A stretch of DNA of 13,728 bases. It comes from a virus. Made by a program: the position numbers and the translations under genes. How positions within the stretch are numbered: the stretch's first letter is position 1; every line of letters starts with the position of its first letter. Positions 765 to 13,728 of the stretch are shown piece by piece. Location: IMG/VR virus record IMGVR_UViG_3300028019_000001, positions 1-13,728 of that record; one strand, 5' to 3'. The notes beneath the pieces are model-generated. The model did no database searches. It saw only the letters and a list, made by a program, of their open reading frames with translations, and was not told where the DNA came from.

Positions 765-907
765 CGATCGCTACCTTCGCAACGTCGCGCCGGCCGACCT
801 GATCAAGCCCGGCCAGACGCGGACCTGGCAGCCGGGCGCCTGAGACGTCAGGCGTGAGACGCGGCCGGCGCCGCAAAGCTGAAACAGGAACCTGAAACGG
901 CCCGCGG

Positions 908-1081: not shown

Positions 1082-1177
1082 CGCGTGTTTCCTTCCCGGC
1101 CTCGGGTTGCCGAGAGTGAGACCGTCTGCCATGGAGACGCGCGGCGCGGCCTGGCGGTTGACATCGATGTCCGGCTA

Positions 1178-1193
1178 AGCGGAGCGCTCCGCT
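1178..1193. promoter_or_regulatory. Perfect 16-bp palindrome AGCGGAGC|GCTCCGCT, candidate operator
   Basis: Read directly. It lies in the 434-nt divergent non-coding region between the DUF4236 gene (start 1081, minus strand) and the first late-operon gene (start 1516, plus strand). Confidence 0.4.
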
Positions 1194-1515
1194 AGCCAAC
1201 CTTCAACCAGTACATGAAGGTTCCTGGCTGATATGCACAAGGAACCGAGCCGAAACGCGGCCATTTAGCTGCGATGTCTTGTAGATCATGGTGCCTGGCG
1301 TGGGACAATGGGAAACGTCGCCTTGCGGCGGCCCGGTGCGCTGAGCTTGCCGTACCGGGCCGCCCCCGGTGGTTGTGCAAAGAGCTGGTACCGCCTCAGA
1401 GGGCCGCCCGATCAGCGGCCGGGGCGATGAGCGGCTGAAGGCGCGCGGGGACAGGGCGGCGCAATCACTGCTGCACGCCCCTTTGCGCTGGGGCGTACCC
1501 GTGGAAGGCGACGAC

Positions 1516-1755
1516 ATGAGCTTGACCGAAGACGGCTTCTGCCCGCGGAACAGCGGGCGCCCCGATCTCTACCCGCACGCACTGCCGAAAGCCTCTGGCG
1601 CCGCGGCTGGCCGCCTGGACGAGGTGACCGAGTCCGGTGCGCAGCCGAAGCCGCAGCCCGCCGTACAGGCGCCTCCTGCGGCTGCTGCGCCGCAAGCCGC
1701 GAGTACCGTGCTCCGGCCAGCAACGGCCGCACCCGCCGCGGTGGCGACGCTGTGA
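1516..1755 (+). CDS. Hypothetical Pro/Ala-rich protein (79 aa)
   Basis: ATG at 1516 is preceded by GGAAGG 7 nt upstream. The upstream part of ORF 1369..1755 has poor GC3 (caa, aga, ggt, tca, gta). The stop overlaps the next start (GTGA at 1752-1755). Confidence 0.55.
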   Translation: MSLTEDGFCPRNSGRPDLYPHALPKASGAAAGRLDEVTESGAQPKPQPAVQAPPAAAAPQAASTVLRPATAAPAAVATL

Positions 1756-2432
1756 GGCGCGCAGAGATCCCGGACGGCCTGCTGAAGGCGCGCCGGGCGG
1801 ACATCGACCGGATCCCTGGCCGGGTGCTCGCCAAGATGACCAGGGGCGACCTGCCGGACCGTCTCGTGGCCGCTGGCGAGTACCGGCGGCGCGCGAGCGT
1901 CCCGCACCTGGACGGCGACTTGTACCGGTACCGGCTCGGCCTGGCGACCGAGGTACTGACCACCGATGACTCGCAGCGTGCCGCCGAGCTGGTCAAGGGC
2001 GCCGGAGTCGGCGTGACCATCGGCACCGGGCGCGCGGCACCGCCAGCGTCGGCGGCGGGATCCGCTGCGGGCGGCCGGGTGACGAAGGCGGCGCCCGCCG
2101 AGATCATCAGGTACCCGGCGGTCGATCTCCTGACGCAGAAAGCCGCCGCCGCGCGATCTGTCGCCGTCGCGCTGACCGAGCTGGCCAAGACGGGCCGTCT
2201 CGGCGAGCTGGGCCGAGATCTCACCAGCATGCACCGGGATATCAGTTCCGGCCGGATGGAGCTCGTCAAGGGGCCCGTGGTCGCGGGGCCGCCGGAGAAC
2301 AGCCTGGCGAAGAGCGCCGGAGCGGCAGGCCTGTCGAAGGCCGCCGAGTACGAGCGGAAAGCGGCAGTCGTGACCGATCCGGAACTGAGGCGCGGCTATC
2401 TCGAGCTGGCGCGCCAGGAGCGTGCGTCATGA
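1752..2432 (+). CDS. Hypothetical protein (226 aa)
   Basis: Strong GC3 bias throughout. GTGA overlap with the upstream gene and ATGA overlap with the downstream gene. No motif recognised. Confidence 0.8.
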   Translation: MRRAEIPDGLLKARRADIDRIPGRVLAKMTRGDLPDRLVAAGEYRRRASVPHLDGDLYRYRLGLATEVLTTDDSQRAAELVKGAGVGVTIGTGRAAPPASAAGSAAGGRVTKAAPAEIIRYPAVDLLTQKAAAARSVAVALTELAKTGRLGELGRDLTSMHRDISSGRMELVKGPVVAGPPENSLAKSAGAAGLSKAAEYERKAAVVTDPELRRGYLELARQERAS

Positions 2433-2644
2433 CGGTGACCACGCAGGTGGCGACGGCGCTGTCGGCAGCCAAGCGGTATCAGCTGGCGGTCGGCGCGACG
2501 GCCGCGCAGGCCGGATGCCCGCAGGTCCACATCACTCCCGGCTGGGTCTCAGTGCCCTGCCATGGCGCCGACATCGCCTCGTTCGGCGCGACCCTCGCGG
2601 CCGTGCTCAACAACACGGCCAACTACGGAGGAGCAGGAACATGA
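2429..2644 (+). CDS. Hypothetical protein (71 aa)
   Basis: ATGA overlaps at both ends (2429-2432 and 2641-2644). Good GC3. Confidence 0.7.
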   Translation: MTVTTQVATALSAAKRYQLAVGATAAQAGCPQVHITPGWVSVPCHGADIASFGATLAAVLNNTANYGGAGT

Positions 2645-3774
2645 GCGCGGACACCAGCGGACCGGGCCGCAGGCTGACCCCCGAGCAGGAGCAGCGCGCC
2701 GCCGAGCTGTTCGCCGCCGGGCGCAGTGAACGCGAGGTCGCCGACGAGCTCGGCTGCTCGGCGTCGACTGCGCACCGGCTGCGCGAGCGCCTGGAGCGCG
2801 CCGGCGGCACCCCTGACGAGCCGGAAGCACCGGCGGCGCCCGCTCGCGACGAGCACGAGGCCGCCGGGGCGTTCGAGCTGACCGCGCAGCACCCGCTGCG
2901 CGAGTCCCCCGGCGAGCTGGGGGAGCTTCAGGCCGAGCGCGACCGCCTCGCGGACCTCTTGCAGACCTACGGGGACCGCGCGGCAGCGAGCCGCCAGGCG
3001 CTGGCCGACCTGGAAACCGAGCGCGTGGAACTGCTCACCGAGGGGAAGGACGCGGCGCCGCTGCGGCCGAGGCGGGCGGACGCTGAGGCCGACCTCGCCG
3101 ACAGTGAGACGTCCGCGCAGATCGCCGCCGACCGAGTGGCCGCCGTCGACGTCCGCATCGCGCAGGTGCGGGCAATGCGCGACCTGGCGGAGATGCGGGA
3201 CCAGCTTGAAGCCGCGGTAGCGGAGCGGGACACCGTGTGCGCGGCTACCGGCGATCGCATGCGCGCCGCCGTGCTGGCCGTCAGGCGGGCGGCCGAGGAG
3301 TTCACGGCGGCCCTGGCCGACGAGCGCGCCGCCACGGAGCGCACGGAGCAGCTCGGGCAGGACACGGCGAACCGGGCGCTGGCTCTCGGCGAGCGCGTCC
3401 CGGTCGCGCCGCCGGCGCGCTCCACTGCCCTGTGGGTGGACAACGCCTTTTCCGCGGGGAAGCCGGTGGCGCTTTCGCGAGCGATCAGCGAGGCGCGCAT
3501 CGGGCGTACTGAGGCCGTCGCCACGTGCCTGGGTGAGGCGTTCGGCTGGCTGCCGCCGGATCCGGCCGTGATCGCCGCTGAACGCGAGCGCATGCGGCAA
3601 CTGCGCGCCGCGCCGCCCCCGCCCCCGCCTTCGGTGGAGCATCCCGCGCACTGGCCTGCCGCCGTCAGCGTCGACAGCCACGGCCGGCCGCTCGCGCCGC
3701 CCGACCCGGAACGGCAGCGCGCGCAGACGGCGGTACGTCCTGGCGCGCTCGGCTTTACGCCGTGGCCGGGCTGA
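2641..3774 (+). CDS. N-terminal HTH plus long coiled-coil protein (377 aa); the HTH resembles those of small terminase subunits and Hin/sigma-70 region 4
   Basis: The start is trimmed from ORF 2422..3774 to the ATG at 2641, which has GGAGGAG upstream and an ATGA overlap. RRLTPEQEQRAAELFAAGRSEREVADELGCSASTAHRLRERL is a classic helix-turn-helix. The rest is Ala/Glu/Arg-rich and heptad-like, with a PPPPPP tract near the C-terminus. Confidence 0.8.
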   Translation: MSADTSGPGRRLTPEQEQRAAELFAAGRSEREVADELGCSASTAHRLRERLERAGGTPDEPEAPAAPARDEHEAAGAFELTAQHPLRESPGELGELQAERDRLADLLQTYGDRAAASRQALADLETERVELLTEGKDAAPLRPRRADAEADLADSETSAQIAADRVAAVDVRIAQVRAMRDLAEMRDQLEAAVAERDTVCAATGDRMRAAVLAVRRAAEEFTAALADERAATERTEQLGQDTANRALALGERVPVAPPARSTALWVDNAFSAGKPVALSRAISEARIGRTEAVATCLGEAFGWLPPDPAVIAAERERMRQLRAAPPPPPPSVEHPAHWPAAVSVDSHGRPLAPPDPERQRAQTAVRPGALGFTPWPG

Positions 3775-3793
3775 GCGGCGCGTGACCATGACT

Positions 3794-3830
3794 CCCCGGC
3801 CTGGCTATGACGCGACCGGCCGGGCCGGGG
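3794..3830 (+). terminator. GC-rich hairpin (CCCCGGCC ... GGCCGGGG, 8-bp stem, 21-nt loop) between the HTH/coiled-coil gene and the tape-measure gene
   Basis: Read directly, 20 nt after the stop at 3774. No T-tract follows, so terminator or attenuator function is only a possibility. Confidence 0.25.
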
Positions 3831-3869
3831 ACACAAGCGGAGCACCGGCGGCCGTGAGGAGGTGAGCTG

Positions 3870-6683
3870 ATGGAAGAGGACGTCGCCCTCGCGTTCATTG
3901 CGGATGTTGAGGAAGCAGTAGCCAACGTCCGCGAGCTGCAGGAGGCATCCGCGCAGCTCGCCGAGACGGCCGAGGAATCCTCGTCGGTCGCCGAAGAGGC
4001 GTTCTCGTCGTACGTCGAGGCGTCATCGGCCGCCACGGTGGCCGCTACCGACCTTGAGGAAGCGTCGGCGCGGCTGGCCGAGGTCCAGGCCGACGCGGGC
4101 GCCAGCGCCGAGGACATAGCCGACGCGCAGACTACCTACGGCGCGGCCCTCGACCGGGCAAGCGAAGCGACCATCGCCGCGATCGACGCGCAGGAGCGCC
4201 TTGCCGCGGCCGAAGGCGAGGCGGCCGAGGCCGCCGCGGCGAGCGCGGCGACCCAGGGCGAGGCCGCCGAGACGGTGGCGGCGAAGGATGACCTGGCGGG
4301 CGACGCCGCCGAGGGCATGGGCGCCAAGTACAAGCTGGCGCTGGTGGCCGTCGCCGTCGGCGCGGGGCTGGCGGTCAAGGGCGCGATGAGCTTCCAGCAG
4401 GCCACCACGCGCCTGGTGACCACCGCGGGCGAGTCCGCCAAGAACCTGACCATGGTGCAGCAGGGCATCCTCGGCATGACGGACGCCACCAACCAGAGCG
4501 TCACCAGCCTCTCCAGCGGCATGTACATGGTGGAGTCGGCCGGGTTCCACGGTGCCGCGGGCCTCGAGGTGCTGAAGGCCGCCGGGCAGGGCGCGGCGAT
4601 GGAGCAGGCCAACCTGTACGACGTCGCCAACGCGGTCACGTCCGGCCTGAACGCCTACGGGCTCAGCGCCAGCCACGCCACCAGCTTCACCCAGCAGATG
4701 CTGGCCACCGTCGGCCAGGGCAAGATGACGATGGAAGACCTGGCGTCGTCGCTGTCCGCCGTGCTGCCCTTCGCCGCCGCCGCGCACATCTCGTTCGACC
4801 AGGTGGGCGGCGCGCTCGCCACGATGACCGGTATGGGCATGTCGGCGCAGCAGTCCACGCAGGACCTGGCCAACGTGATCCGGAACATCCTCAAGCCGTC
4901 CGGGACCGCCTCGGCTGAGATGCGCGCCCTCGGCCTGAACGCTAACGAGGTCAGCGCCAGCGTCGGCAAGGTGGGGCTGACCGGCGTGATGCAGGAGTAC
5001 ACCGACGCCATCCTGAAGAACACCAGCGGCGGCATGGTGATGCTCGGCTACATGAAGGAGATGACCCCGCAGGCGCAGGGGCTCGCCCGCGAGATCATGG
5101 CAGGGACGATCAGCACCCAGCAGCTGCGGACAGCGGTGTACGGCCTGAATCCGGAACAGGCCAAGCTGATCAGCCTGTTCGAGACGGCGGCGACGTCGGC
5201 GACGGGCCTCAAGCAGACCTATGCGGGCGCGATGGCCGAGCTGACCGGCGGCGCGACCGGCCTGAACGTGGCGCTGATGCTGACCGGCAGCCACGCGAAA
5301 ACCTTTGCCGACAACGTGAAGACGATCGGTGCCGCAGCGAAGACCAGCGGCAGCGACGTCGCCGGGTGGGGCGCCTACCAGAAGCAGGCGGGCGTCGAGC
5401 TGAGCGAGCTCGTCAAGACGACGGAGGCGATGGGCGACGAGCTCGGCCTGGTGCTGCTGCCTGCCCTCGAAGCCGTTCTCGGCCCGCTGCGTGACCTGTT
5501 CGGCGTGATCGCCCGCAACCGTGCCGCGGCGATCGCCTTCGCCCTCGTCATCGGCACCGTGCTGTCGGGGGTCGCCTTCGTCAAGCTCAAGAACGTCCTG
5601 ACCGAGGCGAAGGACGGGTTCAGCGCGCTCTACGACGTGGTGACCGGCCTCCCGGCCGCCGCGTCATCCGTCGTGTCGTTCGCCTCCACCGTGGCGCAGG
5701 GCCTCTGGCGGGCAACCGTGGCCACGGGAACGTGGATAGCCGAGCACGCCGTCGCGACCGCGCAGTTCATCGCGCAGAACATCGCGCAGGCCGCCAGCGC
5801 GATGGCCGCGTTCGTGGCCGAGAACCTCGCCACGCTCGGTATCGGCATCGCGATCGTCGCGCTGATCGCGGTCATCGTGCTGCTGGCCACGCACTGGAAA
5901 GAGGTCTGGTCGGTCGTCAAGACGGTCGGCCTCGACGCCTGGCACTTCATCGACGGCCGCCTGATCCAGCCGTTCATGGCCGGGGCCGACGAGCTGGTCA
6001 AGTGGGTCGATTCGCACTGGCGGCTGCTCGCGGCGATCATTTCCACGGTGCTGCTGGGGCCGGCGGAATTCCTGATCTCGTTCATCGCGGCGCGCTGGGC
6101 GGAGTTCGCGCGCCTGACGTCGCAGGTCACCGACGCGGTGACCGGGTACTTCGGGCGGCTGCCGGGCCGGATCCTGTCGCAGCTGGCCGCGCTGCCGGCC
6201 GGGTTGTACAACATGGGTCGCAACATCGTCATGGGCCTCATTCACGGCATCGAGGACCAGGCGGGCCCGCTGCTGTCGTACGTCGGCGGCCTCGCCGGTG
6301 ACGTCGAGCACACCTTCGCGTCCGCGCTGCACATCTTCAGCCCCAGCCGCGTCTTCTTCATGCACGGCGTCAATACCATGCTCGGCTACATCAACGGCGT
6401 CAAGTCGATGGCGGCGCAGGTGAAAGCGACGATGGCCGGCGTCGGCGGCCAGGTGGCGGCGGCCGGGACCGGCACCGGCGCCGCGCTCATGCCAGCGGGC
6501 AGCACGGCCGGCGGCAGGATCAATGTCACGGTGCCGCTGTCCGTGGCGTTCAACGCCGGGACGAGCGGTCTCAACTCGCCGCAGTTCTACCAGTACATCC
6601 AGGCCGCCGTTCAGGAAGCCGTGCTCCGGTGGGGGCTGAACAACCCCGGTACCGGGTTCGTGCTCCCAGGGAGGGCCGGATGA
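3870..6683 (+). CDS. Phage tail tape-measure protein (937 aa), TP901-type core
   Basis: GAGGAGG RBS at 3856-3862. Acidic Ala-rich N-terminus. The core KYKLALVAV...FQQATTRLVTTAGES...MYMVESAGFHGAAGLEVLKAAGQGAAMEQANLYDVANAVTSGLNAYGL...MEDLASSLSAVLPFAAAAHISFDQVGGALATMTGMGMSAQQSTQDLANVIRNIL matches the tape-measure core family as I know it. Several hydrophobic helices lie in the C-terminal half. Confidence 0.92.
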   Translation: MEEDVALAFIADVEEAVANVRELQEASAQLAETAEESSSVAEEAFSSYVEASSAATVAATDLEEASARLAEVQADAGASAEDIADAQTTYGAALDRASEATIAAIDAQERLAAAEGEAAEAAAASAATQGEAAETVAAKDDLAGDAAEGMGAKYKLALVAVAVGAGLAVKGAMSFQQATTRLVTTAGESAKNLTMVQQGILGMTDATNQSVTSLSSGMYMVESAGFHGAAGLEVLKAAGQGAAMEQANLYDVANAVTSGLNAYGLSASHATSFTQQMLATVGQGKMTMEDLASSLSAVLPFAAAAHISFDQVGGALATMTGMGMSAQQSTQDLANVIRNILKPSGTASAEMRALGLNANEVSASVGKVGLTGVMQEYTDAILKNTSGGMVMLGYMKEMTPQAQGLAREIMAGTISTQQLRTAVYGLNPEQAKLISLFETAATSATGLKQTYAGAMAELTGGATGLNVALMLTGSHAKTFADNVKTIGAAAKTSGSDVAGWGAYQKQAGVELSELVKTTEAMGDELGLVLLPALEAVLGPLRDLFGVIARNRAAAIAFALVIGTVLSGVAFVKLKNVLTEAKDGFSALYDVVTGLPAAASSVVSFASTVAQGLWRATVATGTWIAEHAVATAQFIAQNIAQAASAMAAFVAENLATLGIGIAIVALIAVIVLLATHWKEVWSVVKTVGLDAWHFIDGRLIQPFMAGADELVKWVDSHWRLLAAIISTVLLGPAEFLISFIAARWAEFARLTSQVTDAVTGYFGRLPGRILSQLAALPAGLYNMGRNIVMGLIHGIEDQAGPLLSYVGGLAGDVEHTFASALHIFSPSRVFFMHGVNTMLGYINGVKSMAAQVKATMAGVGGQVAAAGTGTGAALMPAGSTAGGRINVTVPLSVAFNAGTSGLNSPQFYQYIQAAVQEAVLRWGLNNPGTGFVLPGRAG

Positions 6684-7039
6684 CGCAGGAAGAACTACTC
6701 GGGGCGGCCAGCGCGCTCCGGTTCGTCCTGTGGTCGGTAGACCACGGTCAATGGCTCGCGGCCGGCGGCGATCCGGCCGACGCGCCGCCGTGCCCCGTAA
6801 CCAGCGCCGAGCTTGCGGGGCTGGCCGCTCCGCTCGCGGGCCTTGTCGTCAGCGCCCGGCTTGAGCTCGCGCGGCAGCTCGGCCAGGTCGGCTACAGCGA
6901 GCAGTCCCAGGCCGCGCGCGCCTGGCTCCAGACTGAGCTGGAGGGCGTGGAAATCGCCGCGTCGTTCGCCGCCGTCGACGGCGAGACGGCAGGCCCGCAG
7001 CCCCAACTCCTAGCAAACCCCAACTCCAGTCAGGACTAG
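6680..7039 (+). CDS. Hypothetical protein (119 aa)
   Basis: ATG at 6680 has an ATGA overlap with the tape-measure stop and GGGAGGG upstream. Good GC3 except for the last ~12 codons. Confidence 0.7.
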   Translation: MTQEELLGAASALRFVLWSVDHGQWLAAGGDPADAPPCPVTSAELAGLAAPLAGLVVSARLELARQLGQVGYSEQSQAARAWLQTELEGVEIAASFAAVDGETAGPQPQLLANPNSSQD

Positions 7040-7050
7040 GAGTTCCTGAC
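7001..7050. repeat. Repeat-dense low-GC junction: CCCCAACTCC x2 (7001-7010, 7018-7027), inverted AACTCCTAG/CTAGGAGTT (7005-7013 / 7036-7044), hairpin GTCAGGA-N8-TCCTGAC (7029-7050)
   Basis: Read directly. The TAG stop of gene 6680..7039 sits in the hairpin loop. Confidence 0.6.
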
Positions 7051-7074
7051 GGCATCCGCGACTGAGGCTTCTGA

Positions 7075-7570
7075 CAGGAGATCGCGGCCGAGGCGTACCT
7101 GCGGACGGCCGCGCAGCTCGCCCGTGAGACGGAGCACGACGAGATCGCGGCGTGGTGCGCCGAGACCCGCGCGTGGCAGGCGCTGACCCGCGGCGGCTAC
7201 CGCGAGGCCGTCGCCCTGGCGCGCGCCGCGCAGGAGATCGCCCCGCAGCACAGCAGCGCGTACATCCAGCCGGTCGCGCAGGAAGGGCGCGCGGCACGGG
7301 ACATCCTCGGCGCGCTGGAGCGCCCGGACGGCGGATCGCCGCGCCCGCGCCGGATCGCGCTCGCCCGGCTCGACCTCGGCCTGGCGCTCGTCACCGCGGG
7401 AAAGCTCGACGAGGCGACCGAGGTTGCCCTCGCCGCGGTGCGCTCTGGCCGCCTGGCGCCCGTCGACGCGCCGCGCGTCCGCGAGATCGCCGCCGCGGTG
7501 TCCGGCACGCCGGACGGCCGCGAGCTGGCCGAGGCGTACCGGACCCCGCGCGGCGAGATTCCCCCTGACG
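7075..7570 (+). pseudogene. Start-less C-terminal remnant of an XRE-family/TPR-type transcriptional regulator
   Basis: The frame opens after TGA at 7072-7074 and contains no ATG/GTG/TTG until GTG at 7438. It nevertheless has strong GC3 and reads EIAAEAYLRTAAQLARETEHDEIAAWCAETRAWQALTRGGYREAVALARAAQEIAPQHSSAYIQPVAQEGRA...PRPRRIALARLDLGLALVTAGKLDEATEVALAAVRSGRL...RELAEAYR. From memory, this resembles the C-terminal half of ~400-aa Streptomyces XRE/TPR regulators. The N-terminal HTH is absent and there appears to be an internal deletion. The 3' boundary is approximate. Confidence 0.55.
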
Positions 7571-7587
7571 TCCTGAGATCGGAGTGT

Positions 7588-7612
7588 GCGGGTTCGAGTC
7601 CCGCCCGGCTGC
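7588..7612 (+). other. tRNA 3'-end-like segment (T-arm GCGGG-TTCGAGT-CCCGC plus 7-nt acceptor-like CCGGCTG and one further base); not a complete tRNA
   Basis: Canonical GGTTCGAGTCC T-loop with a perfect 5-bp stem, read directly. I could not fold an anticodon arm, D-arm or matching 5' acceptor strand upstream. It is therefore a fragment, possibly an att-core relic. Confidence 0.45.
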
Positions 7613-7630
7613 CCCGCCTAGCATGGGCGC

Positions 7631-7948
7631 ATGAGCGAACCACTCGCACGATACGAGTTCCCGCCGGGGGCCAAGATCATCTCGTACTGCCCGCTGTGCT
7701 CGTGGCAGCACCACGACGGGCCGCTGCCGGAAGGGTCCGGGGCGACCGCCGACGAGGTGGCCGCGGACATCCTGGCGAAGCACTTCGCTGCCCTCGAGGA
7801 GATCAGCCGGGCTCACCTGGAAACCCATTCGCTCCTGGAGTGGGCACAGGAAGTGACGCGGCTCGGGGGCGAGGCGGCACGGCTCGAGGTCGAGGCGGAA
7901 CGGCTGCGCGGGATCGTGGCCGAACTAACTCCGAAACAGCGGGCGTGA
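7631..7948 (+). CDS. Hypothetical protein (105 aa) with one CxxC and a C-terminal coiled-coil
   Basis: Good GC3 in this frame, in contrast to the overlapping ORFs 7438..8001 and 7391..7828. No clear Shine-Dalgarno sequence. Confidence 0.7.
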   Translation: MSEPLARYEFPPGAKIISYCPLCSWQHHDGPLPEGSGATADEVAADILAKHFAALEEISRAHLETHSLLEWAQEVTRLGGEAARLEVEAERLRGIVAELTPKQRA

Positions 7949-8117
7949 AACAGGTGAAGCAACCCTATCCGGACAGGAAGTGCCCTCAATTCCTGTCCTG
8001 ACCTGCGGAAATGCCGTCCGTTTGGCGTATCGCCAGGTGAAACAGCTCGTGGCCTGAAACTGTTTCTTTCCCAGGTCAGAGCCGGTTTTACGGTGCTCGG
8101 CGCGCTGCTGTTTCACC
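7933..8117. repeat. Cluster of GAAACAG / GTGAAACAG motifs in both orientations
   Basis: GAAACAG at 7933-7939. GTGAAACAG at 7945-7953 and 8037-8045. CTGTTTC at 8060-8066, within GAAAC-T-GTTTC at 8056-8066. CTGTTTCAC at 8108-8116. GGTGAAACAG (8036-8045) is the exact reverse complement of CTGTTTCACC (8108-8117). Confidence 0.7.
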
Positions 8118-8176
8118 GGCGCGCATGACGGCGCCCCGTCGCTCAAGGGAGCAGGCGGGGCGCTGTCTCGGCCGGG

Positions 8177-8437
8177 TCACACGTGGTCGTCGGCCCACTC
8201 GCCGCTCTTACGGTCGAGCAGCGGCTTGCGGTAGTGCGCGCCATGGTGCTCCTCCAGCTCCATCAGCACGTCGGCCAGCGCGTGAATGAGCACGCGGCGG
8301 GCGCGCTGGTCAGTCACGCTGGCGAGCCGCTGGCCGCTCTTGAAAGCGAAGACAACGGGCCGCACGGCCCACCGCAGGTACGCGCCCGCGGCGAGCACGG
8401 CCGCCGCGATGATGCCGGTAATGATCAAGATGTTCAC
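8177..8437 (-). CDS. Small membrane protein (86 aa from GTG), N-terminal transmembrane helix
   Basis: Start trimmed from ORF 8177..8536 to the GTG at 8437 (VNILIITGIIAAAVLAAGAYL...), with GGGGA upstream. The upstream extension is Arg-rich and overlaps a strong hairpin. The exact start is uncertain. Confidence 0.6.
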   Translation of the reverse strand: MNILIITGIIAAAVLAAGAYLRWAVRPVVFAFKSGQRLASVTDQRARRVLIHALADVLMELEEHHGAHYRKPLLDRKSGEWADDHV

Positions 8438-8484
8438 AATCGTCCCCACTCGGGTTATCTCACGTCTTCGGGAAACCGGGCGCC

Positions 8485-8525
8485 GGGGGGGCGGGACGTC
8501 CGCTGAGCAGACGCCCCGCGCCCCC
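8485..8525. terminator. GC-rich imperfect hairpin (14 pairs across a 16-position stem, 9-nt loop)
   Basis: GGGGGGCGGGACGTC (8486-8500) pairs with GACGCCCCGCGCCCC (8510-8524), extended by G8485-C8525; mismatches at 8490/8520 and 8496/8514. It lies between the nuclease remnant and the small membrane gene on the minus strand. No T-tract. Confidence 0.3.
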
Positions 8526-8561
8526 TGGCGGTTCACTCGCGGGCCACCGCGCCGTTTTCAG

Positions 8562-9014
8562 CTACGGAGCGGGTGCCCGCCGGGGCGCGGCCACCGTGCC
8601 GTCCTTGAATACGGCGCGGGTGCCACTGTCGGGAGCTGTCAGACGGGCATCCGGTGCCGTCGCCGGTACCGGAGGGTGGCGCGCCGGTTGCGCCGCCGCC
8701 GGGCCTTGTCGGCGTTGATCACGGCGGCCCCGGCGAGCGCTCTGACGCCAGCCTCGACCACCTCGGGACACGTGGCCCACAGCCATGCTGCCGAGGATCA
8801 TGCCGTGCACGACCGTGCCGAGATCCATGCTCTTGGTCGACTGTTTCGGATGCCGCCGGAAGTGGTCGAAGATCGCCGGGCAGTTCGGGGGCATCAGCAG
8901 CCGCGAACTGGTGACCGACAGCGACCCGCCGTCGACGGGATCAGCGTGGTACTGGTCTTCGGGGATGTCGCCGTAGAGGCCGGGTTCGGTGATGGTGCCG
9001 GTGAACTCAGGCAT
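8562..9014 (-). CDS. PD-(D/E)XK nuclease-like (RecE/DUF3799-type) protein, N-terminal part only; probable frameshift near 8780 and truncation (pseudogene candidate)
   Basis: ATG at 9014 has a GGAGGAG RBS and an 8-nt overlap with the upstream stop. GLYGDIPEDQYHADPVDGGSLSVTSSRLLMPPNCPAIFDHF...MDLGTVVHGMILG matches the conserved N-terminus of this family as I remember it. After ILGS the called frame becomes Arg-rich with poor GC3. The +1 frame (..CPEVVEAGVRALAGAAVINADKARRRRNRRATLRY.., stop at 8639-8641) carries the GC3 signal. No catalytic D...ExK region is visible. Confidence 0.55.
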   Translation of the reverse strand: MPEFTGTITEPGLYGDIPEDQYHADPVDGGSLSVTSSRLLMPPNCPAIFDHFRRHPKQSTKSMDLGTVVHGMILGSMAVGHVSRGGRGWRQSARRGRRDQRRQGPAAAQPARHPPVPATAPDARLTAPDSGTRAVFKDGTVAAPRRAPAP

Positions 9015-9234
9015 CGGGCGCTCCTCCGGTTTCGGCGGGGCGCAGGTTGTAGGTCTGGTAGTCGTCGCAGTAGCCGGGGCAGGTGCAGCCGCCGCACGCG
9101 AAGCAGTGCTGGTGGTCGCATTGCCACTGGTCGAAGTCGTCGTAGCAGGCTTCGTCGCAGTCGTGCTCGCAGGGCTCCGCCTCGTAATCGCAGGGCTCCG
9201 CCTCGTAATCGCCGTCGTACAGCTGACTAGCCAT
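9007..9234 (-). CDS. Hyper-acidic Cys-rich small protein (75 aa: 10 Cys, 12 Asp, 7 Glu, 1 Arg, 0 Lys)
   Basis: Start trimmed to the ATG at 9234 (GGGGGA RBS, 8-nt overlap with the upstream stop). Sequence: MASQLYDGDYEAEPCDYEAEPCEHDCDEACYDDFDQWQCDHQHCFACGGCTCPGYCDDYQTYNLRPAETGGAPDA. Confidence 0.7.
   Translation of the reverse strand: MASQLYDGDYEAEPCDYEAEPCEHDCDEACYDDFDQWQCDHQHCFACGGCTCPGYCDDYQTYNLRPAETGGAPDA
9169..9210. repeat. Perfect 21-bp tandem duplication (GCAGGGCTCCGCCTCGTAATC x2) encoding DYEAEPC x2
   Basis: Read directly: 9169-9189 equals 9190-9210. In frame within CDS 9007..9234. Confidence 0.9.
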
Positions 9235-9532
9235 CGGTCCCCCTGCCTGCGGTGGTCTTGAGTGCACCGCACCAGCCGGATTCCATGCACGGCACGACGC
9301 AGACGCAGTCGCCGGGGTCGCCGATCTCGGTGAGGTCGCTGCAGAACCCGCACGGCTCGATACGGGCGAGCTCGTCGGCGAGCTCCCCGGCACGGCGCAG
9401 GACGATCCGGAGGCCGACCGCGATCAGGCAGAGCACCAGGCCGGCAGGCAGGCCCCACGGCCATCCGGCCGCAGCGCCGATCGCGGCCGCGGCGGCGACG
9501 CAGACCAGGGCGTACGGCAGGTGGCGCCTCAC
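9227..9532 (-). CDS. Membrane protein with Cys-rich C-terminal domain (101 aa)
   Basis: GTG at 9532 with a GTGA overlap with the upstream stop. Hydrophobic LPYALVCVAAAAAIGAAAGWPWGLPAGLVLCLIAVGL is followed by CGFCSDLTEIGDPGDCVCVVPCMESGWCG. Confidence 0.7.
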   Translation of the reverse strand: MRRHLPYALVCVAAAAAIGAAAGWPWGLPAGLVLCLIAVGLRIVLRRAGELADELARIEPCGFCSDLTEIGDPGDCVCVVPCMESGWCGALKTTAGRGTDG

Positions 9533-9984
9533 TGGCGTTCCCCTTCCTCGCCGCACTCCAGGCACCGGTAACCCGGATACGGTGACCCTTGGCATGTGCC
9601 GCAGGTGTACTCGCCGATCATCGTGATGAGGGTGCTGCCGACGACGCTGGCGAGCTTGGCGGCGATGTCGAGCGAGACGTTGGTGCCGTTGACGGCCCGG
9701 GCGATGGTCGGCGCGCTGACTCCGGCGCGTTCCTCCAGTTCGCCCTGTGTCCACCCGAGTGCGCGCAGCCGGGCGCGCAGGTGGGTGGCGTAGCGGGCCA
9801 TCACATCCGGTGTCTCCGGCTTGTCTCCCGTGCCATCGCCGCATACGGAGCAGTTGCCGGAGTCGCAGTAGTGACTAGCAGGGACGGGTGTTTCCTCCGC
9901 CTCCGCGTTGGCTCCCGGCATGCTGGCCAGCACGCGGGCGGCGATCGCGCCGCGGTTCGGACGCGGGTAGAGGTCGTCGGTCAT
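9529..9984 (-). CDS. XRE-family helix-turn-helix protein flanked by Cys clusters (151 aa); candidate repressor/regulator
   Basis: ATG at 9984 with an ATGA overlap. LRARLRALGWTQGELEERAGVSAPTIARAVNGTNVSLDIAAKLASVVG is a typical HTH_3/XRE motif. HYCDSGNCSVCG lies upstream of it and CGTCQGSPYPGYRCLECG (CxxC-N9-CxxC zinc-ribbon pattern) lies downstream. Confidence 0.8.
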   Translation of the reverse strand: MTDDLYPRPNRGAIAARVLASMPGANAEAEETPVPASHYCDSGNCSVCGDGTGDKPETPDVMARYATHLRARLRALGWTQGELEERAGVSAPTIARAVNGTNVSLDIAAKLASVVGSTLITMIGEYTCGTCQGSPYPGYRCLECGEEGERQ

Positions 9985-10238
9985 ACCCACCACTCCCCCC
10001 ACCGGTTGAGCCGGTCGTTCAGCCGGGCTTTCAGGTGCCGGCGGCCGACGCCGTGCACCACGCCGACGGGGCACTGATCGGGGCCGAGGTTGTCGGCGTA
10101 GGGCCGCAGCGTGGCCTCCCACACGCGCCCCAGGCCGTCGACGCGAATGCGCCGGATGTCGGCGACGACCCGGCCGCCGCAGGTGGCGACGGGGTTACGC
10201 CACAGCCGCCGCCACCGCTTGATCCGGATGGTGCTCAT
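9981..10238 (-). CDS. Hypothetical basic protein (85 aa)
   Basis: ATG at 10238 with an ATGA overlap with the upstream stop, and the stop overlaps the next start. Good GC3. ORF 9981..10523 trimmed. Confidence 0.7.
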   Translation of the reverse strand: MSTIRIKRWRRLWRNPVATCGGRVVADIRRIRVDGLGRVWEATLRPYADNLGPDQCPVGVVHGVGRRHLKARLNDRLNRWGEWWV

Positions 10239-10516
10239 GACGCGCCGCCCGGCAATGCAAGCTGCTCGCCGTCGGTGAACACCTGCTCGTCGCGGCGCGC
10301 GCCGAACGACGGCCCGGCGTAGGCGTAGCGGGCCGTCTTGCGGCGCAGTTCGCGGCCGAGGCGGGCGAGCAGCACCAGGCGGCGCGGCCACCGCGCGGCG
10401 GCGATCTCCTCCAGCGCGATGATCCGGGCCTCGAGGTGGCTCAGCTTCTCCTCGGTGACGTACTCCGACCACACGGCATCGCGGGCGAACTGCTCGGCGT
10501 CGAACGGGGCGCTCAC
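10235..10516 (-). CDS. Hypothetical protein (93 aa), paralogue of 10513..10860
   Basis: GTG at 10516 with a GTGA overlap. FDAEQFARDAVWSEYVTEEKLSHLEARIIALEEIAAARWPRRLVLLARLGRELR aligns with LDVERFARASNYQSWLTDWAISALEDRVVRIEELIAARWWQRPGVRRKLARELR in the upstream gene. Confidence 0.75.
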   Translation of the reverse strand: MSAPFDAEQFARDAVWSEYVTEEKLSHLEARIIALEEIAAARWPRRLVLLARLGRELRRKTARYAYAGPSFGARRDEQVFTDGEQLALPGGAS

Positions 10517-10860
10517 AGGGCATCCTCGCTGCCAGCGTTCCGGGCGCGGGTCACCTGCGGGATCCGCACCTCGCCTGCGTACTGCACGCGGCGGGTCGCG
10601 AAGTCGCGCGGCATCCAGTCGCCGTACCCGGCGACCGAGGCGCGCAGCTCGCGCGCCAGCTTCCGGCGCACGCCGGGCCGCTGCCACCAGCGGGCGGCGA
10701 TCAGCTCCTCAATGCGGACAACGCGGTCCTCGAGCGCGCTGATCGCCCAGTCGGTGAGCCAGCTCTGATAGTTGCTCGCGCGGGCGAACCGCTCGACATC
10801 GAGCGGTTCGCGCAGCGCTGCGTTCTCCTCGCGCAGGCGATCGGTCGCGGTTGCGGCCAT
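10513..10860 (-). CDS. Hypothetical protein (115 aa), first gene of the leftward operon, paralogue of 10235..10516
   Basis: ATG at 10860 with a GAGGAG RBS 5 nt upstream. Strong GC3. Confidence 0.8.
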   Translation of the reverse strand: MAATATDRLREENAALREPLDVERFARASNYQSWLTDWAISALEDRVVRIEELIAARWWQRPGVRRKLARELRASVAGYGDWMPRDFATRRVQYAGEVRIPQVTRARNAGSEDAL

Positions 10861-10914
10861 TACGCTCCTCAGGTCGGAGCGTCAGACAAGGATAATCCTC
10901 GCGGTACGTTGCCT

Positions 10915-10940
10915 CGTGACCTGCGTTTTAGCAGGTCACG
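10915..10940. promoter_or_regulatory. Perfect 10-bp inverted repeat CGTGACCTGC-GTTTTA-GCAGGTCACG, candidate operator of the leftward operon
   Basis: Read directly. It lies 55-80 nt upstream of the ATG at 10860, in the 403-nt divergent control region. Confidence 0.5.
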
Positions 10941-11070
10941 CACGTAGCTTAGGCTTGGATACGGGATGAGTAGCCGGTCTGACGCCATCGGTTGAATTAG
11001 CCGCTTGAGCTGGCACTTCTCCGCTCAAGTGGCATCACTATTGCACGCGCGTAGTTGCTCTGTCAAGTAT

Positions 11071-11131
11071 CCGTGTTTCGCGGGACATGAGACCTCGCAC
11101 CGTGCTTCCGGTGTTTGCGGGACATCCGACC
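11071..11131 (+). repeat. Two imperfect 24-nt direct repeats, CCGTGTTTCGCGGGACATGAGACC (11071-11094) and CCGGTGTTTGCGGGACATCCGACC (11108-11131)
   Basis: Read directly. The shared core is GTGTTT(C)GCGGGACAT..GACC, with copies 37 bp apart, in the divergent control region upstream of the rightward operon. Confidence 0.6.
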
Positions 11132-11263
11132 AATCGGCCATAGTGAGCATCGTCCGTGGAACTACACGGAGGTTTTTACCCGAAGACCGCTGGAATGTCA
11201 GTGGCCTCGGTCATCCTGAATCCGGCACACGACACCCGTGGGCTACTACGCACGTAAGTCCCG

Positions 11264-11626
11264 ATGCACAGGACGGTGATCACGATAACAGCTTCATCTA
11301 CGCGCGCCCCCAACCCGGATTACCCCCCGACGCGCACCACACCCGGCGCCCTGGCCCGCCTCGTGACCGAGGACTGGTCCCGGATGACCGCCGCGGCCAA
11401 CGCCAGCCCCAACCACGTCGGCAGCGCCGAGCGGTGGACGAAGAAGGCCCGCGAGGCTAATCCCGCGCTCGACGACAACCAGGCGTACCGCCTCGGCCAG
11501 CTCCTCAAGCGGCAGTTCTACCAGGCCATCGGAAGGAAGTCCGCCGAGGCCCGCCGACTCGCCCGCGACGCACAGCGGATCGAAACCGAGGCCCGGGCCG
11601 AGCTCGCCAGCGCCGAGGCGGGCTGA
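11264..11626 (+). CDS. Hypothetical protein (up to 120 aa), first gene of the rightward operon
   Basis: GC3 bias from about 11300 onward. No Shine-Dalgarno sequence before the ATG at 11264, so it may be leaderless; alternative starts are GTG 11276 or the ATG near 11384. C-terminal helical region: QAYRLGQLLKRQFYQAIGRKSAEARRLARDAQRIETEARAEL. Confidence 0.6.
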   Translation: MHRTVITITASSTRAPNPDYPPTRTTPGALARLVTEDWSRMTAAANASPNHVGSAERWTKKAREANPALDDNQAYRLGQLLKRQFYQAIGRKSAEARRLARDAQRIETEARAELASAEAG

Positions 11627-11666
11627 CCGGCCGCTCATGCCTTACCCGCTAAGATCATCGGTATCG

Positions 11667-11690
11667 GGCGGCCCTATCGCCAGGGCCGCC
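11667..11690 (+). terminator. GC-rich hairpin GGCGGCCCT-ATCGCC-AGGGCCGCC (9-bp stem)
   Basis: Read directly, 41 nt after the stop at 11626. No T-tract follows; I recall such terminators being described in high-GC actinobacteria, but this is unproven here. Confidence 0.35.
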
Positions 11691-11890
11691 GACGCTGTCA
11701 CAAAGGCCATGGCCACCGCGAAGAGCGCCCGCGAGGCGCTAGAGGCGGGCGCGCCGGCGAAGGTGAAGGCGGAGCCGTACAGGCCGCGCGGTGCTCTTGC
11801 CGCGCCTGATGGCCTGCGCATCCCATACCCGCGCGGTCGCTGTGGTGAATCCTGCCCGCCGACCGGCCCTCACCCCCGGAGGCCGCACCC

Positions 11891-12121
11891 ATGCCCGAAC
11901 GACGACAGCGGAATGTCCGCCCTGAGATTGCCAGCGCCCGCGCTCGCCTCGCCGCGCTGACCGCGCGCCGCGCTGATCCCGACGCCATCGCGACCGCCAG
12001 GGCCGCCCTCGCGTCCGCCAGGGCGCGAGCCGCGGTATGCGAGCTGCTCGGCCTGCCCGCGGCCGAGCGTATGCAGCTCGCCGGGCTCTTGCTCACCGGG
12101 AGCGGTGGCGATGGCACCTGA
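11891..12121 (+). CDS. Hypothetical Ala/Arg-rich helical protein (76 aa)
   Basis: GGAGG lies 8 nt upstream of the ATG. Good GC3. Confidence 0.65.
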   Translation: MPERRQRNVRPEIASARARLAALTARRADPDAIATARAALASARARAAVCELLGLPAAERMQLAGLLLTGSGGDGT

Positions 12122-12130
12122 CAAGCGAAA

Positions 12131-12154
12131 CGGCCCGCACCGGAGCACGGGCCG
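12131..12154 (+). terminator. Hairpin CGGCCCG-N10-CGGGCCG (7-bp stem)
   Basis: Read directly, 10 nt after the stop at 12121. No T-tract. Confidence 0.25.
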
Positions 12155-12226
12155 CCAGAAGTCGCCGCCAACGACTAACGCCAGCATAACCGGGTACTTC
12201 GCTGTGCGCGGCGAGGCGGCGCGGTT

Positions 12227-12934
12227 ATGGGCGCATCGAACGCGCTCCGCGCCTACTCGACGTACGCGGCCAGGGTTTCTCCCGCATCGCTCAGCGTGCT
12301 GGTCTACATGGCCCTGGTGTCGATGGACAAGGACGCCGAGCCCTGGTGGTCGCAGGGACACGAGATACTCGCCGCCATACCGCTCGGACGCAGGGGGCCG
12401 ATCAGGAACGCCGACCTGCGCGCCGTCGAACGGGCCATCACGTCACTGTTTGAGGCCGGGGCCATCACGGTCGATAAGCACTCTTCCGGACATCCGGGGA
12501 ATTCGCAGCACGTCCGCTACCGGCTCTGGCTCACCCATCCCGCACCCGACGAAAACCGTCGTGTGGAAAACCGGGCCGCACCCGACGAAAACCGTCGTGT
12601 GGAAAACCGGGCCGCACCCGACGAAAACCGTCGGGCGCCAGGTGATGGCACCCGACGAAAAGTGGTCTCGCACCCGACGAAAAGTGGTCTCGCACCCGAC
12701 GAAAACCGTCGGGCTAAGGAGACAGAGGAGGACGAGGAGCTAAATAACAAGCAGGATGAAGATGACGCTCGACGTACGACCCGTACAGGTTTCGCGCGTG
12801 GGGACGCGGGCGACGACAACGAGAATTTCGACAATTTCCGGCTGGACGAAGAAGCCGAGCGGCGCCGCCAGCTCGACGCCCTCACCGAATGGATGCGGCA
12901 GCATCCCGAGCAGGCCGAGGCGGTGACGCCATGA
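12227..12934 (+). CDS. Replication initiator-like winged-helix protein (235 aa), lambda-O-like architecture with its binding-site array inside the gene
   Basis: The N-terminus LRAYSTYAARVSPASLSVLVYMALVSMDKDAEPWWSQGHEILAAIPLG...RAVERAITSLFEAGAITV is typical of wHTH phage/plasmid initiator-like proteins (from memory). The central part is encoded by the iteron array and the C-terminal third is acidic. An ATGA overlap links it to the next gene. Confidence 0.75.
   Translation: MGASNALRAYSTYAARVSPASLSVLVYMALVSMDKDAEPWWSQGHEILAAIPLGRRGPIRNADLRAVERAITSLFEAGAITVDKHSSGHPGNSQHVRYRLWLTHPAPDENRRVENRAAPDENRRVENRAAPDENRRAPGDGTRRKVVSHPTKSGLAPDENRRAKETEEDEELNNKQDEDDARRTTRTGFARGDAGDDNENFDNFRLDEEAERRRQLDALTEWMRQHPEQAEAVTP
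12542..12714 (+). repeat. Iteron array: six copies of GCACCCGACGAAAA (starts 12542, 12578, 12614, 12648, 12670, 12692); candidate origin of replication
   Basis: Read directly. There are two perfect 36-bp units and one 34-bp unit, then two perfect 22-bp units (GCACCCGACGAAAAGTGGTCTC) and a final copy. Four copies contain the dyad CGACG-AAAAC-CGTCG. An AT-rich stretch at about 12715-12850 follows (GAGCTAAATAACAAGCAGGATGAAGATGAC, AATTTCGACAATTTCC). Confidence 0.85.
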
Positions 12935-13191
12935 TCGTCACCACGACCAACGGCGACCTCGCCGCGCTCGCCCGGGCCGAGCTGGAGCGCCACAAGGCCC
13001 GCACACCGCAGCGGCATGCCGCCGCGATGCTGTGGGTCGCGCTCATCACCACAGAGACCGCCGGCAGCGCCAGGCGGGCACTGGACACGTTCGGCACCGG
13101 CCAGGGCCGCAGCGGCGCGCTCGAGCTGCTCGGGCGCCTCATCGTCGCCATCGGCCAGGACCACGACGCCGCGAAGGACACCGCGCCATGA
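12931..13191 (+). CDS. Hypothetical protein (86 aa)
   Basis: ATG at 12931 with ATGA overlaps at both ends. Trimmed from ORF 12889..13191. Confidence 0.7.
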   Translation: MIVTTTNGDLAALARAELERHKARTPQRHAAAMLWVALITTETAGSARRALDTFGTGQGRSGALELLGRLIVAIGQDHDAAKDTAP

Positions 13192-13670
13192 CCACGACCA
13201 TCACCGTCTACGGCCAGCCCGCGCCGCAGGGCAGCAAGCGCGCGTTCGCCGTACGCGGCAAAGGCGGGGTACCCACCGGCCGCGTCGCCGTCATCGAGTC
13301 ATCGCACGACCGCGTTAAGAGCTGGCGTCAGGCTGTCATCGACGCCGCGGTCTCCGTGCGTCCTGATGTCCCGCTGCACGGCCCGCTCGCCGTCGAGATG
13401 ACGTTCCTCATGCCGAGGCCGAAAGGCCACTACGGCACCGGCCGCAACGCCGGGAGGCTCCGCGACAGCGCCGCGGAGCGCCCATCCGGGAAACCCGACC
13501 TGTCCAAGCTGCTGCGCGCCACCGAAGACGCCCTCACCGACGCCGGAATGTGGGCCGACGACGCCCAGGTCGTCGAGTACGCGCGGCTGGCCAAGACCTA
13601 CGCCGACCACCGGCCGCCTGGCGCCGTCATCACCATCCGAACCCTCGAGTCAGGAGACACAACGCCATGA
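13188..13670 (+). CDS. rusA: RusA-family crossover junction endodeoxyribonuclease (160 aa)
   Basis: ATG at 13188 (ATGA overlap). ITVYGQPAPQGSKR..., then PLAVEMTFLMPRPKGH, then GKPDLSKLLRATEDALTDAGMWADDAQV. This matches the RusA pattern (PDxDNLxKxxxDAL....DD) including the acidic catalytic residues. Confidence 0.9.
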   Translation: MTTTITVYGQPAPQGSKRAFAVRGKGGVPTGRVAVIESSHDRVKSWRQAVIDAAVSVRPDVPLHGPLAVEMTFLMPRPKGHYGTGRNAGRLRDSAAERPSGKPDLSKLLRATEDALTDAGMWADDAQVVEYARLAKTYADHRPPGAVITIRTLESGDTTP

Positions 13671-13728
13671 CCACCACCATGCCGCCCGGAACGCTGCTCG
13701 CCACCGGCGCGCACGACGCCGGATACCC
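13667..13728 (+). CDS. 5' part of the wrap-around Cys-rich protein gene (continues at position 26 of the window)
   Basis: ATG at 13667 with an ATGA overlap with the rusA stop. The frame is in phase with ORF 57..395 through the 25-bp terminal identity. Confidence 0.75.
   Translation, partial: MTTTMPPGTLLATGAHDAGY
13704..13728. repeat. Terminal direct repeat copy 2, identical to 1..25
   Basis: Read directly. Confidence 0.9.

Follow-up and report, generated by a model that had tools for sequence, protein, structure and literature searches.

A candidate theta-type replication origin within the gene of its predicted initiator in a circular 13.7-kb actinobacterial element

In lambdoid phages the origin of replication consists of iterons and an AT-rich tract in the middle of gene O (PMC7466680). 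Stx phages have six iterons where lambda has four, which adds 13 residues to the O protein (PMC7466680). Here we describe a locus of similar architecture in viral DNA of 13,728 nucleotides (IMG/VR record IMGVR_UViG_3300028019_000001, positions 1 to 13,728; this whole stretch is called the window in the following), in which the open reading frame (ORF) for a 235-aa protein at 12227-12934 harbors six iterons directly followed by an easily melted tract. A preliminary description made from the letters of the window had proposed that this ORF encodes a replication initiator and contains the origin on which the initiator acts. Our analysis indicates that positions 12542-12773 are probably the theta-type vegetative origin of a circular actinobacterial element, located inside the gene of its own initiator.

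Repeats within a replication gene have also been found in actinomycetes. RepAM from pMEA300, an integrative element of Amycolatopsis of approximately 13 kb, binds multiple repeats inside its own coding sequence; the sites are identical 8-bp repeats that form a single hairpin near the gene's 3' end, a pC194-like nick site is present, and rolling-circle replication was predicted (PMC2440964). RepAM is the family PF12307 (PMC3218068). In the extrachromosomal mycobacteriophages Miko, Rachaly and Jeeves, repA plus about 170 bp suffices for replication (PMC7157519). In the same study of mycobacterial prophages, published in 2020, the origin was suspected, by analogy to lambda, to lie upstream of or within repA, and no repeats were found (PMC7157519).

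The array, the adjoining tract and the encoded protein

The window is a closed circle, its ends overlapping by 25 nt. A contig from ENA (L001, 141-nt overlap) is a circular permutation of it, and a third, independent contig from JGI (L036) reads through the ends of the window with 2 mismatches in 7.2 kb.

The motif GCACCCGACGAAAA occurs in six exact copies (for the positions see Table 1) with a spacing of 36/36/34/22/22 bp. By chance 0.10 copies are expected, six were reached in none of 200 shuffles, and no further copy was found elsewhere in the 13,728 bases with 2 mismatches allowed. Tandem Repeats Finder reports two perfect arrays, one of period 36 and one of period 22. The full dyad CGACG-AAAAC-CGTCG is present in copies 1, 2, 3 and 6, and the left half alone (GCACCCGACGAAAAGTGGTCTC) in copies 4 and 5. 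Number, spacing and the four dyads are as given in the preliminary description, and so is the location of all six copies within the ORF, where the iterons occupy codons 105-162. Neither 34 nor 22 being divisible by three, the copies fall into different frames: the codon phases of copies 1-6 are 1, 1, 1, 2, 0 and 1, and the peptides are APDENRR (three times), GTRRKVV, SHPTKSG and again APDENRR. In each 36-bp unit a second GGAAAACCGG element (TGTGGAAAACCGGGCC), similar to the iteron core, is found 18 bp past the iteron centre (12562-12577 and 12598-12613); it may be a degenerate extra half-site.

The GC content at third codon positions (GC3) backs the frame of the 235-aa protein over 12227-12510, and the signal fades over 12511-12870, which comprises the repeats and an acidic stretch. 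Such fading is expected if the DNA is constrained by something besides coding. Two long ORFs in other frames cross the repeat region (12105-12743 on the plus strand and 12517-13164 on the minus strand), and over 12421-12870 the highest third-position-like GC content (0.72-0.77) is that of the frame starting at 12105, most likely because the composition is GA-rich and constrained by the repeats and not because there is a second gene. Neither an Rfam family nor a tRNA was found. The dyad repeats fold well when single-stranded (RNA fold z-score -3.2), which is expected from dyads and does not discriminate between explanations.

The 50-mer beginning at 12714, two bases past the last iteron, is the least stable duplex of the window; when segments of 40, 60 or 100 bp are compared the tract ranks second (z about 3.2 for the 60-mer). 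Its GC content is 0.50 and its purine fraction 0.73. Over 12650-12849 the GC content is 0.57 versus 0.71 for the window, so that the AT-rich stretch reported after the repeats was found again.

For the protein an AlphaFold2 model was built with an alignment of 89 sequences. It confirms the winged-helix-like domain that had been assigned to the N-terminus: residues 1-105 are predicted with a pLDDT (predicted local distance difference test) of about 95 to have winged-helix topology, with helices at 3-13, 19-31, 45-50 and 61-77 and strands at 80-84 and 97-100, and conservation across the family is highest in this part. Residues from about 110 to 200, which coincide with the repeats and the acidic patch, are predicted to be disordered, and residues 203-230 to form a confident helix (pLDDT about 90). 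When compared by Foldseek with the PDB, the model gave generic winged-helix matches, all with E > 0.1; among viral models it matched phage 'helix-turn-helix domain' proteins and replisome organisers, the best match being an uncharacterised protein of Microbacterium phage Megan (A0A649VM01; E 7e-6).

The 235-aa protein has no match in Pfam or NCBIfam. In a large protein collection it has 89 homologues, nearly all unnamed, and a profile search retrieved 789 representative clusters at E <= 0.001, of which 428 at E <= 1e-10; no family member was found among 50,697 phage genomes and 72,556 plasmids. The exact protein is encoded on two JGI contigs. Its C-terminal helix is common to about 9 other members, others carrying Zn-ribbon or other C-termini, and the C-terminal modules are thus swappable across the family. 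At the C-terminus of some long forms (P0003, P0026) there is a Phage_zn_bind_8 zinc finger.

Related loci and translation of the array

Related loci were drawn from viral contigs, metagenomes, genomes and contigs encoding individual homologues; the comparison set comprises 24 distinct elements with 33-60% protein identity. All 24 have their own array of 3-7 dyad repeats right after the part of the gene coding for the winged helix, beginning at about codons 90-130. The proposal of an origin within the initiator gene had been made dependent on whether homologues have intragenic repeats, and it survived this comparison. Towards the downstream end neighbouring copies are 22-23 or 34 bp apart (34/22/22 or 23/22/23), and they stand in mixed codon phases. 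The repeat motif is specific for the lineage, all copies within one locus sharing the local variant, and its design, inverted arms flanking a GAAAC-type centre, is common to all (GCACCCGACGAAAAC in the window, CCCTACGGAAACCGTAGG in L003, ACGCCCGACGG in L004 and L008, TAGGACGGAA in L007, ACCCCCCGGAAACCGGGGG in L010, ACGGTGGACGGAAACCGTCCACCGT in L024 and ACGGACCCCACTCA in L012). The repeats thus co-vary with the protein. Also the reading in three frames recurs in the peptides of homologues, for example VPRKP, RPTES and TSHGNRG in a distant clade.

As controls, 747 windows from the same loci were compared with 25 target zones. An exact 10-mer in at least 3 copies is found in 22 of the 25 target zones versus 9 of the 747 control windows (1.2%), and a 14-mer with at most 2 mismatches in at least 4 copies in 22 of 25 versus 4 of 747 (0.5%). 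These measures replaced a more lenient one (12-mer, at most 2 mismatches, at least 4 copies), by which 10% of the control windows scored positive.

The low-stability tract accompanies the array. When the window and ten viral relatives were tested, the ORF's least stable 50-mer (z 2.6-4.5) was in every case at the array's downstream edge. Ten of these 11 loci have its start 1-27 bp past the last iteron, and in the other (L011) it shares 19 bp with the last copy; in seven of the 11 it is the least stable of the whole locus of approximately 12 kb. Loci collected later agree on a low-stability tract after the array. An alignment of 25 loci, non-coding cases included, shows the tract to be conserved as DNA with L025 as the sole exception: (C)TAAGGAG or ATAGGAG is followed by NNN-GAGGAG-NNN-GAGGAGCGAGA and then by an A-rich stretch. 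In these loci the GC content of the tract is 43-65% versus 65-73% for the loci themselves, and its top strand is 62-78% purine in all but L025.

Four relatives have an array of which part or all is not translated. The ORF of L006 ends after 120 aa, and four iterons and the GA-rich tract follow past the stop codon; in L023 all four iterons and the tract are found in a non-coding gap of 220 bp. In both of these loci the array comes wholly after the stop of a short gene that encodes the winged helix alone. L024 has three near-perfect 25-bp palindromes that straddle and follow the stop, and L021 has two copies within the ORF and two outside. The array is therefore a DNA element and not a peptide repeat, which bears out the earlier suggestion, based on the reading in three frames, that the DNA rather than the peptide is selected. 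Embedding in the ORF is common in the family and not obligatory; what is constant is the linkage in cis of winged-helix gene and array. We propose that the DNA signals give rise to the linker peptide largely as a by-product, one that needs merely to stay open and flexible, for which reason the same motif can be read in three frames.

In the split forms L006 (5231-5740) and L023 (3580-4164) the predicted non-coding origin is followed by a gene for a Cys/His-rich protein, and the two proteins share the motif C..CH.AP.RPHT.YCP. Together with the zinc finger of some long forms, this is a hint at equivalent modules in the fused and the split version.

The number of iterons varies between assemblies of the element itself. 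Two MEGAHIT assemblies from ENA (L001 and L002) have exactly one 36-bp unit and one 22-bp unit fewer (window 12576-12611 and 12648-12669, compared with L001 5423-5630 and with L002; the missing 22-bp unit is from the region of iterons 4/5), which leaves 4 iterons and shifts the frame, giving a 152-aa product that keeps the DNA-binding domain. The form with 6 iterons and 235 aa is present in two JGI assemblies, and the element is otherwise 100% identical over 13.6 kb. Simple assembly collapse is argued against by the arrays being shorter than the final MEGAHIT k-mer of 141; the difference may be a real polymorphism or an effect of the assembler. In a search of viral contigs with exact flanks no further assemblies of the element were found. 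That the array doubles as a slippage-prone frameshift switch is a long shot. If the polymorphism is real, gain or loss of a 22-bp unit would toggle between a replication-competent initiator and a form that only binds, and the latter could act as an inhibitor or could keep up the copy number. Short forms with the winged helix alone are constitutively encoded in L006, L023 and L024, with the origin downstream; if the switch were true, the series of fused and split forms would show how an origin comes to sit within an initiator gene.

Comparison with described systems and weighing of alternatives

The annotated record of phage lambda was analysed with identical scripts as a positive control. The lambda iterons (TCCCTC-AAAAC-GAGGGA) are found at codons 117, 123, 131 and 139 of O, span codons 117-145, are spaced 20/24/23 bp and have phases 0, 2, 2 and 1; the least stable 50-mer starts 5 bp past the last iteron (z 3.1; 67% purine). 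Lambda, together with the Stx phages P27 and 933W, and the window thus have in common an origin, a predicted one in the window, located mid-gene between the coding parts for an N-terminal DNA-binding and a C-terminal interaction domain, with 4-6 dyad iterons composed of arm, A-tract centre and arm, spaced by about two helical turns and standing in several codon phases, and with a purine-rich, least-stable tract within a few bp of the last iteron. As in lambdoid phages the iteron number varies naturally, altering the length of the protein, and as in lambda the gene is part of an early operon that runs rightward and lies downstream of a divergent regulatory region; a RusA-type resolvase is encoded beyond it. 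Reading in three frames and variation in copy number are already lambda-like and therefore not new. Unlike lambda, the element has no P-like or DnaC-like loader, the C-terminal part of its protein is a single helix and not a globular P-binding domain, and its tract is GA-rich, with about 50% GC in a 71% GC genome and with the motif GAGGAG...GAGGAGCGAGA; the hosts are high-GC actinobacteria, and relatives exist with the origin outside the ORF. The parallel drawn in the preliminary description between this locus and lambda O/ori-lambda thus holds for the architecture, in which the lambda control looks alike, and fails for protein homology (Pfam, hhalign). What is supported is a resemblance in architecture and probable function, not membership in the lambda O family.

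Iteron plasmids of the Rep_3 type (RepE of F, pi of R6K, RepA of pPS10, P1) likewise have a winged-helix initiator, iterons approximately two turns apart, an easily melted region adjoining them and an iteron sequence that co-varies with the initiator. Unlike the protein described here, which has one winged helix, their initiators have two, and their iterons are outside the rep gene; a Rep_3 initiator was rejected since there is no Pfam match, and the Foldseek match to RepE54 is weak (E 0.83). RepAM and the pMEA-type integrative and conjugative elements of actinomycetes (AICEs) share with the window that a mobile element of about 13 kb from an actinomycete has repeats inside a replication gene, and some homologues of the 235-aa protein are found in AICE-like contexts (FtsK/TraB, NUDIX and ParA genes). 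The phased 20-bp dyads situated mid-gene beside a predicted unwinding tract are unlike RepAM (PF12307/DUF3631), and identity with it was rejected because none of 29 members matches PF12307. The RepA proteins of Miko, Rachaly and Jeeves are of a different family, have 320-350 aa and are related to the RepA of pMSC262-type plasmids.

Several findings link the family to replication. P0075, one of its members, has matches to phrog_270 'replication initiation protein' (1.9e-18) and to a PHROG named 'primosomal protein' (8e-14); the gene is placed in early replication/recombination modules near RusA, Rad52, UvrD and Dam; and in the closed 13.7-kb circle the 235-aa protein is the sole candidate initiator. 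Larger relatives have helicase-type proteins close to the initiator gene: L016 encodes SNF2/DEAD plus HNH proteins (11115-13109), and L018 a UvrD-type protein upstream and an unassigned 583-aa protein downstream of it (6715-8445 and 10959-12710). Nothing of the kind is encoded by the 13.7-kb element.

From this we infer a pathway in which the protein occupies the repeats, the tract melts, a helicase is recruited and replication starts here. The 235-aa protein would be translated from the rightward early operon, and its N-terminal winged helix would bind the six iterons, probably as dimers given the inverted arms of 5-6 bp around the A-tract centre. The copies nearest to the tract being two turns apart (22 bp), the bound proteins would lie roughly on one face of the DNA and could build a bent or wrapped nucleoprotein complex similar to the O-some of lambda. 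The complex would strain the adjoining GA-rich tract, the most easily melted DNA of the element, and thereby open it, upon which the disordered linker and the C-terminal helix might recruit host replication proteins. Actinobacteria are generally held to have no DnaC-type loader and to rely on DciA, which would make direct recruitment of host factors plausible.

A number of points weigh against a theta-type origin in this place or against its lambda-like character. Neither the protein nor 29 relatives match Phage_rep_O (Pfam), hhalign gave a probability of 0.1 and a sequence search of the PDB was negative; homology to lambda O was therefore rejected. The weak match of the protein to phrog_391 'replication initiation O-like' (E 4.5e-5; 12 of the 29 members match this profile) is to profile positions 49-168 and depends on the linker; it was discarded as evidence for homology since lambda O matches the other half of the profile (133-288) and the winged helix alone is unmatched, the N-terminal 105 aa having no match to any PHROG. 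For helicase, primase and loader no ORF of the element has a family match in Pfam, PHROGs or NCBIfam, in agreement with the earlier statement that a P/DnaC-like loader is not evident, and recruitment of a helicase is pure conjecture in an element that has no recognisable loader. The cumulative GC skew of the circle, which had been suggested as a check, has its extremes at about 100 and about 10,000 and not at the candidate origin; its amplitude is small and it is uninformative. With approximately 50% GC the tract is AT-rich solely relative to a background of 71% GC, and there is a second region of low GC content and low stability, the intergenic region 10861-11263, which contains no iteron array. 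Finally, the 4-iteron form, if real, implies that the full-length protein is not always needed.

Some of these points could be explained if the repeats were operator or roadblock sites of a winged-helix regulator in or after its own gene, the origin being elsewhere, for example at 10861-11263. The fold is generic, Foldseek matches include regulators of the ArsR, Fur and TFIIE type, and one homologue was named ArsR-family regulator by JGI; besides the absence of a helicase or loader and a GC skew not pointing at the repeats, the likewise low stability of 10861-11263 and the regulatory role that the RepAM review raises for intragenic sites would fit. We nevertheless regard this as unlikely, since it leaves unexplained the conserved GA-rich tract of least stability next to the array, the multiple phased sites (4-7) and the links to replication-initiator PHROGs. 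Moreover, 10861-11263 holds a two-copy 25-mer and short palindromes without a match to the iteron motif; with operator-like repeats alone and no iteron array it was rejected as an alternative origin. Regulation and origin function are also compatible, lambda O-type and iteron systems doing both. A double-strand origin of the rolling-circle or RepAM type, in which the dyads would extrude hairpins and the protein or a partner would nick, finds a precedent among similarly sized elements of actinomycetes (PMC2440964), and the good folding of the single-stranded dyads and the AICE-like contexts of some relatives would agree with it. It is very improbable because none of the 29 scanned members matches RepAM (PF12307), Rep_1, Rep_2 or HUH families, because the model predicts beyond the winged helix a disordered linker and one helix, hence no nuclease domain, and because a phased array next to an unwinding tract is characteristic of theta origins; the sites of RepAM are 8-bp repeats with one hairpin at the 3' end (PMC2440964).

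The array could, in addition, be a centromere-like partition site or a pac site bound by the adjacent protein, comparable to ParR/parC or terS. Phased repeat arrays bound by a small, adjacently encoded helix-turn-helix (HTH) protein are typical of centromeres, pac sites within terS are known, and L021 encodes a ParA-type ATPase about 6.5 kb away. We give this very little credence: a ParA or ParM gene adjoins neither in the window nor in most of the loci, the module is likewise present in integrated prophages and islands, and neither model has a use for the melting tract beside the array. A small terminase gene with an internal pac site was rejected because the window has no terminase and because in the Micromonospora haikouensis prophage L018 the large subunit of the terminase is encoded approximately 5.5 kb and more than 10 genes downstream. 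Least probable of all is that the repeats serve at the protein level as a repetitive disordered linker or stem from a recent neutral duplication and have no function as DNA. The region they encode is indeed predicted to be disordered, the 36-bp units are 100% identical, as after a recent duplication, and the copy number varies between assemblies. In every lineage, however, one DNA motif is read in three frames into unrelated peptides, arrays with different sequences persist at 33-60% protein identity, and those of L006, L023, L024 and L021 extend beyond the ORF or lie altogether outside it, with stop codons in them; the peptide reading is effectively excluded by the non-coding arrays.

The remainder of the element and significance

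The rightward operon begins with three small ORFs, followed by the initiator gene, an 86-aa ORF, the gene for RusA and further genes (Table 1); the presence of rusA downstream, already noticed in the preliminary description, is backed by Pfam. The 86-aa ORF has no family match in Pfam, PHROGs or NCBIfam and is not conserved with the small downstream ORFs of L015 and L018. Because the small downstream ORF is not conserved between the compared loci, the idea that it encodes a P-like partner was dropped. The leftward operon encodes an HTH protein of the Cro/CI type, and the divergent regulatory region 10861-11263 lies between the two operons. This intergenic region of low GC content contains the two copies of the 25-mer (11070-11094 and 11107-11131), a perfect palindrome with 10-bp arms (10915-10940) and a further palindrome (11000-11033), which are probably operators and promoters of an immunity-like switch.

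Table 1. Positions of the putative initiator gene, the repeats, the adjoining tract and the downstream genes in the window
Feature	Position	Strand	Basis or remark
Putative replication initiator gene, 235 aa	12227..12934	+	ORF, translation, homologues
Part coding for the N-terminal winged-helix domain (residues 1-105)	12227..12541	+	AlphaFold2, Foldseek, conservation, GC3
Iteron 1, full dyad GCACCCGACGAAAACCGTCG	12542..12561		
Iteron 2, full dyad	12578..12597		Missing from L001/L002 as part of one 36-bp unit
Iteron 3, full dyad	12614..12633		
Iteron 4, left half-site type GCACCCGACGAAAAGTGGTCTC	12648..12669		Second frame (GTRRKVV)
Iteron 5, left half-site type	12670..12691		Third frame (SHPTKSG)
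Iteron 6, full dyad	12692..12711		Adjoins the melting tract
GA-rich low-stability tract (CTAAGGAGACAGAGGAGGACGAGGAGCTAAATAACAAGCAGGATGAAGATGACG...), proposed DNA-unwinding element	12714..12773		Encodes acidic patch KETEEDEELNNKQDEDD
Part coding for the C-terminal helix (residues 203-230, ...ERRRQLDALTEWMRQHPE...), proposed interaction module	12833..12916	+	pLDDT about 90
86-aa ORF overlapping the end of the initiator gene (ATGA overlap)	12931..13191	+	
RusA-like Holliday junction resolvase, replication/recombination module context	13188..13670	+	Pfam RusA 2.5e-12; phrog_140 1.2e-28

Among the proteins of the element no capsid, portal, terminase or integrase is recognisable. A 937-aa protein encoded at 3870-6683 resembles tape measure proteins (PhageMin_Tail 1.7e-20; tape measure PHROGs down to 2.7e-37). 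L022, a JGI contig of 13.4 kb, encodes a homologous initiator, a 953-aa PhageMin_Tail protein and an ORF of approximately 120 aa in the same order as the window and additionally bears four tandem tyrosine-integrase genes; the two may belong to a family of small satellite-like or AICE-like elements. A 377-aa protein (2641-3774) has an N-terminal HTH_23/IS630-transposase-like domain (Pfam 7.8e-7; NCBIfam IS630 8.7e-7, far below the cut-off), its remainder being unassigned, and a 307-aa HTH protein encoded by L020 resembles it; the 377-aa protein could be the recombinase of the element, an analogue of a small terminase or a regulator. The 150-aa ORF at 8562-9014 (minus strand) matches a short internal segment of exonuclease VIII/RecE alone (phrog_412 1.1e-14, residues 5-76) and is either a fragment or a domain standing alone. 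Across the junction of the circle (13667-13728 continuing to 1-395) runs a 143-aa ORF with a weak match to the double zinc ribbon DZR_2 (5.6e-4, below the cut-off). A perfect 21-bp tandem repeat of 2.2 copies, TCGCAGGGCTCCGCCTCGTAA, is found at 9167-9212 near the junction of the small leftward ORFs 9007-9234 and 9227-9532.

Among genomes, the nearest relatives come from a Streptosporangiaceae metagenome-assembled genome, Actinomadura and Micromonospora. They do therefore not point to Streptomyces, which the preliminary description had assumed as host and which is probably not the host.

For the phages and small mobile elements of actinobacteria, most replication origins are still to be mapped. 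The putative initiator family described here, hitherto uncharacterised (about 790 clusters, outside Pfam and NCBIfam), has a predicted origin in cis in every examined member, and the order of winged-helix gene, phased dyads and GAGGAG tract provides a signature by which the origins of high-GC mobile elements could be annotated. The principle is textbook, and the gain is in breadth and utility rather than in a new mechanism; the family, the origin signature and their use in actinomycete genetics appear not to have been described before. Being compact and mutually distinct, the pairs of initiator and origin are possible vectors for Actinomadura, Micromonospora and related antibiotic producers, and the series of translated, partly translated and untranslated origins bears on the question why the origin of lambda sits within O.

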